Below are positions 13,301-16,300 of a stretch of 64,000 nucleotides of DNA, one piece after another (within the stretch, counting starts at the first letter, position 1; every line of letters starts with the position of its first letter). Origin of the DNA: Escherichia coli (GTDB taxonomy: Bacteria > Pseudomonadota > Gammaproteobacteria > Enterobacterales > Enterobacteriaceae); assembly GCF_036507355.1 (NCBI RefSeq), contig NZ_AP027877.1, one strand, 5' to 3'. Position numbers: made by a program.

Positions 13301-16300
13301 TTCTGACGTATTTCATAAAGAAAGCATTTTGTTTTTTTCACAATTATTTATAAAAAATATCGAACTTTTCGATATAAATAGTCCGGAAGATGTAATGATT
13401 TTTGATAGTCCCGATGCATCTTCTATTTTTGATACTCAAGGATACCTCTCGACGTATCATGTTCAGCCAGATTTACTCGATTATAAGAACAAAATAATCA
13501 TCCTTTTGGTTAAATTTCTTAATCATATTAATGAGACAAATAGCAAATACAATACTGCGGAAAAGAAAGATTTCTATAATAAGTTATTGGCACCACTACG
13601 CCATATAAATAACGACGGAAATAAAATATTGATATTAAATTATCTTATAACGAACATCTTTACATCCACAAATTCAAATCCTGATGGTTTGCTCTTTAAT
13701 GCTATACTGGATATTGCACATAACTCCGTTCACAGAGGATATTTAAATCAACATAGTTTAATCAGGCATCGCTGCGTCCAACACGCACTGATTAACATCA
13801 TCTCAAAACAAACAGATATTGACTTAAAAATAAAATGGATAAAAGATATAGTTTTAGTGTTGAAGTTACAACATGATGATTTATCGAAATGTATCAGCCC
13901 ACTGATTTTCGCTATTGAATCGATAAAAACAACCAGCATTAACGACACGACAATTAAAACCTCTTCGCAAATATTAAAACTGCATAATTATATGGAGATG
14001 TGTTATACACTTTTTGATAGCTATCCAAATTTAATCACTGAATGTAATGACTTATTCACGGATTGTATTTCTATTGTTACTCAGTACGATCTGAGAGGAT
14101 ATTTTAGCAGACTTTTTGAGATGATAGAGATTACTGACAATGAAACTAAAAAGAATACAACTGCTTTTTTAATTAGCAGAATTGAATCCCGGCATTTGTA
14201 TCAACCTAAAATTGCCGCTCAATCTTTGAAATTGTTATTGAATACAGATATTCCATATGCATATTCATCATTGCCAACATTACTTAATATTCTACAAAAA
14301 ACAGTTTATGAACCGGGGCATCTGGAGTTACTCGATAAAGTGTTAAAGTTATGTGCCAAAAATATTCAGGCGTCAGAATTTGATAGTTTATTAGAACTAC
14401 TAAAGATATACGGTAATGAAACGACTGCACACTTTATTTTGCTTAGGGAGATAGTCGGATACACTATAGACAATGAAAATAATAAAATCAGGGACAGAAT
14501 CAAGCTAATACTAAATCACATATCTCATAATAATTTTCCAGATGATGAACAAACACTTTATGCAATAGCATGTTTATTCCAGACTTTCCCAGAATTTGTT
14601 TATGAATATCAACAAATATTATTAACAATAAGTGAAATTGCAAGAAGAAATAATTTCATTGCCATTTTAGATACACTAGATAGATCATAAAGCAAATTTA
14701 TTAAAACAATAAAATCAGACATGTCATGCATGTCTGACCGTGTTACCTGAATAATGGGCAAAAGCCTGTGATACTCTTTTGCCCTTACATGGAATTACTG
14801 CGCAGCGGCAGGTTTACGCGGACGGCGGCGACGTTGTTGTTCGCCTGCCGGTTTGGCATCGCCGAGGCGGCGAGACGGTTTTTCTGCAGGCTTCGCGCTT
14901 GCAGATTTTGCACCACCTTCTCCACGGCGTAGTTGCTGTTGACCGCGACCACCGCCCTGCCCACGACCACCGCCGCCACGTTGCTGGCGACCGTTCTGGA
15001 TCGGTTCGGCTTTGATTGACGGGTCCAGCTCATAGCCCGGAATCGCAATGCGCGGGATCTCTTTTTTCAGCAGTTTTTCGATATCACGCAGCAGTTTGTG
15101 TTCATCAACACACACCAACGACAACGCTTCTCCGGTGGCTGCGGCACGACCGGTACGCCCGATACGGTGGACATAATCTTCCGGTACGTTTGGCAGTTCA
15201 TAGTTGACGACGTGCGGCAACTCTTCGATATCCAGACCGCGCGCAGCGATGTCAGTTGCCACCAGTACACGAATATCGCCCGATTTAAAATCGGCCAGCG
15301 CACGGGTACGCGCACCTTGCGATTTATTACCGTGGATCGCCGCACTACGGATGCCATCTTTATTAAGCTGTTCAGCGAGATGGTTAGCGCCATGTTTGGT
15401 ACGGGTAAACACCAGCACCTGCTGCCAGTTCCCTTTCCCAATCATGTGCGACAGCAATTCGCGCTTGCGTTTCTTATCAACAAAGTGAACATGCTGGGTC
15501 ACCTGATCAGACGCGGTATTGCGGCGTGCCACTTCGATTTCCAGCGGGTTGTGCAACAGTTTTTCCGCCAGGGCTTTAATATCGTCAGAGAAGGTCGCGG
15601 AGAACAACAGGTTCTGGCGCTTCGCAGGTAGTTTTGTTAACACGCGACGGATATCGTGGATAAAGCCCATGTCGAGCATGCGGTCAGCTTCATCGAGGAC
15701 GAGGATTTCAACCTGATCCAGCTTCACTGCATTCTGATGTTCCAGGTCCAGCAAACGTCCCGGCGTTGCCACCAGCACATCAACGCCGCCGCGCAACTTC
15801 ATCATTTGTGGGTTAATGCTGACACCGCCAAACACCACCAGCGAACGAATGTTCAGGTATTTGCTGTAATCACGGACGTTTTCGCCAATCTGCGCAGCCA
15901 GTTCACGGGTCGGGGTAAGAATGAGAGCACGTACCGGACGACGCCCTTTGGCGTGCGGCTGGCGAGTGATCAGGTGTTGCAACAGCGGCAGCGTAAAGCC
16001 CGCTGTTTTGCCGGTGCCGGTCTGGGCGCTAGCCATCAGGTCGCGGCCTTCCAGCACCGCAGGGATCGCCTGCTGCTGAATAGGGGTGGGTTCACGGTAA
16101 CCCTGCTCGGCAACGGCGCGCAGGATATCAGGGCTTAAACCCAAAGAATCGAAAGACATAACTACTCCGAACCGCCCCGACCGTTACCGGTGTAGTTTTC
16201 AGGGAGATACTGAAAAGGAAAATGACAAAAACCACAATGTCATGAGGGAGCGGAGTGTAGCAGTTTTTGTGACGCAGCGCATAAATTATCCCTGTGACTG

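Follow-up and report, generated by a model that had tools for sequence, protein, structure and literature searches.

A Rho-independent terminator consists of a stem-loop, with a stem of about 5–14 bp and a loop of 3–8 nt, followed by a U-rich tract right 3′ of the stem, and typical E. coli terminator stems are richer in G-C pairs than four out of nine. Such a terminator follows a gene of its own strand and precedes the next transcription unit. The end sites of transposons and of site-specific recombination lie exactly where element and backbone meet, with a matching copy at the opposite end and a cognate recombinase. REP/BIME elements constitute a multi-copy family with a conserved GC-rich consensus. 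Operators of transcription factors are dyad sites that lie at or near a promoter and usually recur within a regulon, and perfect dyad symmetry is typical of the sites bound by helix-turn-helix dimers. Here we describe a perfect palindrome located between two convergent genes in a 64,000-nucleotide stretch of Escherichia coli DNA (hereafter the window). Judged from its sequence, the palindrome is carried by an acquired islet and probably serves rhlE as a unidirectional Rho-independent terminator, of which it would form the stem-loop.

The palindrome in the convergent spacer of ORF561 and rhlE

The local genes are arranged in the order dinG, espX2, ORF561, rhlE, cecR and beyond. The features of the locus are as follows:

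8254–10404, minus strand: dinG, placed by gene order
10500–14793, no strand: AT-rich islet that replaces ybiA and the REP elements of K-12, delimited by reading its junctions and by GC content; it holds the palindrome with its U-tract as well as the second hairpin
10688–12700, minus strand: espX2, a type III secretion effector gene and the other gene of the islet, from RefSeq annotation and a SopA_C domain (E = 1.3e-14)
13005–14690, plus strand: orphan open reading frame of 561 residues (ORF561), convergent to rhlE, from the ORF call; its stop lies 24 nt before the palindrome
14703–14714, minus strand: U-tract directly 3′ of the stem, TTTTATTGTTTT, from the sequence and a weighted T count (nT = 4.40)
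14715–14737, minus strand: candidate terminator stem-loop with a 9-bp perfect stem and a 5-nt loop, from the sequence, fold, terminator-like call and d-score
14756–14784, minus strand: second hairpin with a 9-bp stem and an 11-nt loop, within the predicted rhlE 3′ UTR, from its folding energy and d-score
14795–16159, minus strand: rhlE, encoding an ATP-dependent RNA helicase, from the annotation of the collinear strain 88-3493; its stop lies 57 nt upstream of the stem

The anatomy of the palindrome was read directly from the window. Positions 14715–14737 are tcagacatg-tcatg-catgtctga, a perfect 9-5-9 palindrome between the stop codon of ORF561 (14690) and the hairpin at 14756–14784, exactly as the original prediction had described. 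It sits in the 104-bp spacer that separates the convergent genes ORF561 on the plus strand and rhlE on the minus strand, and this position adds to the case beyond the palindrome alone. RefSeq records have no annotated feature under the palindrome, a paper on intergenic small genes of strain Sakai has no entry at this locus, and a permissive Rfam 15 search of 12600–16500 returned nothing overlapping 14600–14900, even at E ≤ 10. The 64-kb window has no further copy with up to three mismatches, and no match to the palindrome was found in 100 dinucleotide shuffles of the window. A fairer null counts every perfect hairpin whose arms reach 9 bp or more and whose loop is 3–8 nt long. By this count, the window has 11 raw matches (nine distinct hairpins), compared to 2.3 ± 2.2 in shuffles, so that the palindrome alone is only moderately surprising.

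Side-by-side reading revealed that the homology to K-12 stops at 10499 and restarts at 14794, a single base ahead of the stop codon of rhlE. As it restarts only there, the palindrome and the second hairpin are both islet DNA. The palindrome had been placed at the right edge of the insert, which is approximately correct, but the true islet/backbone junction is 14793/14794, 56 bp further on. The islet of ~4.3 kb has an overall GC content of 30–35%, with values of 0.26–0.39 inside versus 0.51–0.59 in the flanks. It contains no integrase, transposase or other recombinase gene, and its ends have no terminal direct or inverted repeats. The window is in register with strain 88-3493 between ~5.5 and 25.5 kb, outside of which (~1–5500 and ~25500–32000 in this comparison) the register is lost via indels. 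The espX2 region of the window is 2–3% divergent from every one of 5,426 complete RefSeq genomes, with a best identity of 98.7%, so none of these genomes is that of the strain behind the window.

Two further observations concern the surroundings. The leftmost ~190 bp of the islet past the espX2 stop (10500–10687) are ~48% in GC, near to the backbone and unlike the remainder of the islet, and contain the GC-rich hairpin CCCTGGC-CTGA-GCCAGGG without a T-tail; this segment may be a remnant of other DNA. On the other side of rhlE, a perfect 10-4-10 palindrome, TCTTAATCAA-TCAT-TTGATTAAGA, lies at 16352–16375 in the divergent rhlE-cecR spacer and shortly precedes the start of cecR. PMC12998191, citing Yamanaka 2016, places the recognition sequence of CecR (TetR family) in this spacer. 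The palindrome at 16352–16375 is probably this putative CecR operator.

ORF561 possesses a strong Shine-Dalgarno sequence, aaaggag, 6 nt ahead of its ATG and has a GC content of about 29%. Comparison against Pfam and PADLOC assigned it to no family. Clustering of 5.8 billion proteins at 90% places it in a single cluster. When 1.84 billion representatives were searched exhaustively with HMMER, only fragments of ORF561 came up, with no relatives beyond the E. coli copies and fragments. The only fragment at 70% identity is encoded on a 654-bp low-coverage metagenome contig, which has an unrelated upstream part and ends within the palindrome, and is uninformative for covariation. A single-sequence AlphaFold model of ORF561 is an all-α helical repeat of low confidence, with a pLDDT of 61 and a pTM of 0.44, values that make it unfit for a fold search.

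A U-rich tract directly 3′ of the stem on the rhlE strand

The palindrome is predicted to fold in the RNA of either strand, with a ΔG of −12.6 kcal/mol on the plus strand, where it has 10 pairs including a U-G closing pair, and of −11.4 kcal/mol on the minus strand (z of about −4, and −4.0 for the minus strand). What follows the stem is markedly asymmetric. The plus-strand bases 14703–14714 are aaaacaataaaa, and therefore the minus-strand stem runs straight into TTTTATTGTTTT (14714→14703). The original statement that no T-tract follows the palindrome on either strand is thus false for the minus strand. In the rhlE-sense RNA, the stem-loop is UCAGACAUG-CAUGA-CAUGUCUGA, directly followed by UUUUAUUGUUUU in the pattern UUUU A UU G UUUU. 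The plus strand continues after the stem with CCGTGTTACC, which has an nT of 0.42 and no U-tract. A consensus scan also identified a terminator-like site on the minus strand, at 14739→14713, with 11 pairs including two G-T, a loop of 5 and the tail TTATTGTTTT. The two extra G-U pairs that extend the stem from 9 to 11 form on the minus strand only.

We then scored every hairpin together with its 15-nt tail on both strands by a d-score, in which the energy of the hairpin per nucleotide is joined to a count of Ts weighted by their position. The formula, reportedly that of d'Aubenton-Carafa and colleagues from 1990, was combined with current energy parameters, so only ranks and shuffle comparisons are trusted here and not the threshold of d > 0. 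The palindrome has a d-score of +10.9 on the minus strand and −56 on the plus strand. Its minus-strand score ranks eighth among all sites of the window on both strands, of which only 13 exceed d = 0. There are eight sites with d ≥ 10.9 in the window, compared to 0.5 per dinucleotide-shuffled window; when the AT-rich islet is shuffled, 3.3% of the shuffles contain any such site. Most of the higher-ranked sites in the annotated part lie just 3′ of annotated genes, such as ybiJ/hcxB (6010-31, rank 1) and fiu (4232-49, rank 5), and so does the ybiB site (7252-29, rank 10); the gene annotation behind this check covers window positions 1–32000, and ranks 2, 4 and 6 lie past 32 kb. The rest of the 104-bp spacer has no other site scoring above −37. 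The palindrome had been held not to be a classic intrinsic terminator, but the premise of that view fails on the minus strand, where the site scores as a good terminator.

Altogether, the rhlE-sense strand presents a 9-bp stem with a 5-nt loop, a U-rich tract right 3′ of it, and the rhlE stop codon 57 nt before it on the same strand. Other features weigh against the assignment. Only four of the nine stem pairs are G-C (44%), below the share in typical E. coli terminators, though its energy per nucleotide still leads to rank 8 in the window. In addition, the islet is AT-rich with an excess of T on the minus strand, so that T-runs are likelier to occur by chance, although shuffling the islet by itself allows for this bias.

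The second hairpin in the predicted rhlE 3′ UTR

The hairpin at 14756–14784, GGGCAAAAG-N11-CTTTTGCCC, has a ΔG of −11.6 on the minus strand and −10.9 on the plus strand, and is absent from K-12. It had been labelled the rhlE terminator hairpin, a label left unsupported because the hairpin has no T-tail on either strand; its d-scores of −50 (minus) and −46 (plus) are not terminator-like either way. Across the islet strains it is kept, with variation in the loop. The sole stem change seen is a G→A in strain 06-00048, which gives a U-G wobble in the minus-strand RNA and a C-A mismatch in the plus-strand RNA. As the pair is retained as a wobble on the minus-strand RNA only, this change hints that the second hairpin is a structure of the rhlE 3′ UTR rather than of the ORF561 transcript.

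Distribution and natural alleles of the palindrome

Among 5,426 complete E. coli genomes, the espX2 DNA, a 154-bp right-end segment of the islet and a 48-bp palindrome core were each found in 541, in single copy. The islet-bearing strains, which include O157:H7, thus account for about 10% of the complete genomes. In O157:H7 Sakai (NC_002695.2), where rhlE sense is the plus strand, the hairpin occupies 954,665–954,687 and the U-tract about 954,688–954,699. The full islet is present in 156 genomes (ORF561 is intact in about 156), whereas the remaining islet genomes, roughly 385 including O157:H7, have lost most of ORF561 and kept the palindrome. In O157:H7 and the majority of the other genomes with the islet, a 1,487-bp deletion has taken out the ORF561 promoter together with ~1.4 kb from the beginning of the gene, leaving its last ~300 bp plus the palindrome. 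The breakpoints match a 10-bp direct repeat, TTTGATAGTT, at 12892–12901 and 14379–14388, which is consistent with a microhomology-mediated deletion. A 16-nt inverted repeat, 12763–12778/12880–12895 (CAGAAATCGCTCATTT/AAATGAGCGATTTTTG), is located in the divergent promoter region between espX2 and ORF561; its arms are 94% complementary and 101 nt apart, and the O157 deletion begins directly past the right arm.

The 48-bp palindrome core is identical in 452 of the 541 genomes. Comparison of 14 alleles sampled out of these 541 genomes showed that the inner 7 bp of the stem are invariant in all 14, whereas changes fall on the outermost pair, the loop-closing pair, two loop positions, one position of the U-run and the length of the distal A/T run. 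The minus-strand d-score is above 0 in 12 of the 14 alleles, ranging from 3.8 to 16.9. In the allele with a T→A at 14715 (UUUUUAUUG), the terminal pair is broken and the stem is shorter, and the U-run is extended to UUUUU. In strain 2020CK-00188, two loop changes together make a 10th pair. The PT62/wlxctx60 allele (UUGUAUUG) has a T→G within the U-run and a d-score of −14, so the U-tail is not strictly conserved. Formal pair counting over the 14 alleles detected no compensatory covariation within the nine stem pairs, a result that neither supports nor opposes pairing because the alleles are too similar.

A wider motif family or donor was sought with TCAGACATG-N5-CATGTCTGA in 100,044 species genomes, one for each species. 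The six matches are in unrelated taxa with unrelated flanks, compared to a chance expectation for exact arms of about four, calculated as 298 Gb / 4^18, and the search yielded neither a family nor a donor.

The 3′ flank of rhlE in other configurations of the locus

Among complete E. coli genomes, the stretch between dinG and rhlE is a hotspot of replacement, for which at least five different contents were seen. K-12 has ybiA plus REPs here, and other genomes have a truncated NADAR gene, this truncated gene adjoined by a Mu-like prophage, a RelE/StbE toxin-antitoxin pair, or espX2, which may or may not be accompanied by ORF561. All these contents share the same left breakpoint, after gcggctcgcaa. 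Besides the islet, we examined three configurations, namely the K-12 ybiA, the RelE toxin-antitoxin cassette and the truncated NADAR gene (also beside the Mu-like prophage). A native GC hairpin, atgccgggcatagcccggcat, is located just 3′ of rhlE in all three, and is missing from the espX2 islet. In the K-12 type, this hairpin (ATGCCGGGC-TAT-GCCCGGCAT) occupies the position equivalent to just left of window position 14794; on the rhlE strand, a T-run precedes rather than follows it, and REP elements come next. The palindrome itself is absent downstream of rhlE in K-12 and the other non-islet strains. Its presence there would have made it ordinary backbone, as the original prediction had pointed out, and the comparison assigns it to the insert.

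None of the non-islet configurations has a canonical intrinsic terminator on the rhlE-sense strand (best d ≤ −43). The islet palindrome would accordingly be the only canonical terminator for rhlE in any configuration examined. The islet has replaced the native DNA up to the rhlE stop codon, and would therefore supply the 3′ end of rhlE in islet-bearing strains. A broader proposal, which we put forward tentatively and hold to be rather doubtful, is that acquisition of the islet swapped an rhlE 3′ flank made of a GC hairpin and REPs, with no canonical terminator, for an islet-borne intrinsic terminator.

Alternative explanations

The palindrome might instead serve the plus strand, as a barrier to 3′-exonucleases or a processing site where the ORF561 mRNA ends, following Rho-dependent or unspecific termination. 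Such a role and that of a minus-strand terminator are compatible with each other. The plus-strand fold of −12.6 kcal/mol and 10 pairs is slightly the more stable one, no canonical terminator belongs to ORF561 itself (the best d on the plus strand is −37.8), and the palindrome accompanies the 3′ end of ORF561 in 541 of 541 genomes. However, the plus strand lacks a U-tract (d of −56), and the A-rich tract is placed for the opposite strand. Moreover, the palindrome is kept in the ~385 genomes that lack the ORF561 promoter and ~1.4 kb of the gene, though the deletion is maybe too recent for this to count. We therefore regard the plus-strand role, whose specific support is the stability of the hairpin, as unlikely. 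The earlier suggestion of an RNA-processing hairpin is retained only in the general sense that an RNA hairpin is predicted. The functional reasoning of the original prediction is not supported.

To a similarly low degree, we would credit the explanation that the palindrome is neutral and arose by chance, with a T-rich flank that merely reflects the AT-richness of the islet. A shuffled window is expected to contain about 2.3 perfect hairpins whose arms measure 9 bp or more, a simple terminator scan of the local region found six sites compared to 3.3 expected, covariation is absent, and one allele degrades the U-run. By contrast, a hairpin and tail this strong occur in only 3.3% of the shuffled islets, the site falls in the sole convergent spacer, of 104 bp, and has the same orientation as rhlE, and substitutions avoid the inner stem.

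The original prediction had further proposed a protein-binding site. A DNA site for a dimeric protein, either an operator or a transcriptional roadblock and possibly bound by the ORF561 product, would fit the perfect 9-5-9 dyad symmetry and the neighbouring gene of unassigned family. Nevertheless, the palindrome is located where two convergent genes end, away from any promoter, and no gene follows that it could regulate. Each genome has one copy only, with no second one in the window at up to three mismatches, the exact-arm matches among the 100,044 species genomes are six compared to about four by chance, and its half-site is not enriched (nine found versus 12.3 expected), so neither the promoter-proximal position nor the recurrence of an operator is seen. 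In addition, the dyad is broken asymmetrically in natural alleles, at its position 1, and the all-α ORF561 model has no recognisable DNA-binding domain, at low confidence. A protein site is thus very improbable.

A recombination site or junction of the islet (att, dif-like, an IS end or the site of a hairpin-recognising transposase), suggested by the proximity to the right islet end and by the hotspot with its five or more alternative contents, is the least credible of all, since the true junction is 56 bp off with another islet-specific hairpin in between, the left junction near 10500 has no copy, half-site or terminal repeat, genes for an integrase or transposase are missing from the islet, and the other cassettes inserted here have different right junctions without the palindrome.

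A proposed model for rhlE termination and its implications

In the model that we favour, the palindrome acts as the rhlE terminator. RNA polymerase would exit rhlE and read through 57 nt of 3′ UTR, including the non-terminating hairpin (14784→14756), before transcribing the stem-loop UCAGACAUG-CAUGA-CAUGUCUGA and then UUUUAUUGUUUU. Folding of the hairpin would take place in the RNA exit channel, at a time when the active site is occupied by the weak rU:dA hybrid. We infer that termination takes place at the U-tract, and the transcript would be released around 14710–14703, at least 12 nt short of the convergent reading frame of ORF561; the end of the U-tract is 12 nt from the ORF561 stop codon. 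In this way, the islet terminator would shield ORF561 and espX2 against antisense read-through.

If the broader and rather doubtful proposal of exchanged 3′ flanks holds, islet lineages (O157:H7, for example) would differ systematically from K-12-like strains in 3′-end formation and stability of the rhlE mRNA, and perhaps in its expression level. The convergent ORF561 transcript would then share the symmetric hairpin. The value of the analysis lies mostly in annotation: a probable, unannotated terminator is added, the assignment of the rhlE 3′ end is corrected in espX2-positive strains, and the islet boundaries are fixed at 10500–14793. It also provides a small and mildly interesting example of an acquired islet that replaces the whole 3′ flank of a core gene and brings a predicted stop signal with it. 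For hairpins in general, the reverse complement should be checked for a T-tract before a terminator is dismissed.

Comparison with known systems

The REP/BIME elements and the GC hairpin of K-12-type strains share with the palindrome a position in the rhlE 3′ flank between convergent genes and a palindromic nature. However, they are unrelated to it in sequence. Those of K-12 are rich in GC and multi-copy and lack a T-tail (d ≤ −43), whereas the islet palindrome is AT-rich and single-copy, occupying one place per genome in all 541 islet-bearing genomes, and does not belong to the REP/BIME family.

Like bidirectional terminators, the palindrome resides in a short convergent spacer of 104 bp, and its symmetric stem can form in both transcripts. 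It differs from them in that the U-tract is present on one side only. There is no A-tract 5′ of the stem, which makes the putative terminator unidirectional, and the plus-strand score of −56 argues against a bidirectional one.

The closest resemblance is to the Rho-independent terminators of Enterobacteria, with which the palindrome shares a 9-bp stem, a 5-nt loop and an immediate U-rich tract. It is also similar to them in its position shortly past a same-strand stop codon, in its ΔG of about −11 kcal/mol and in its strong strand asymmetry. Compared to typical members, its stem has a G-C content of 44%, and it is embedded in acquired AT-rich DNA yet would serve a core gene. Most likely, the palindrome is an ordinary, previously unannotated case of this well-known type of element.
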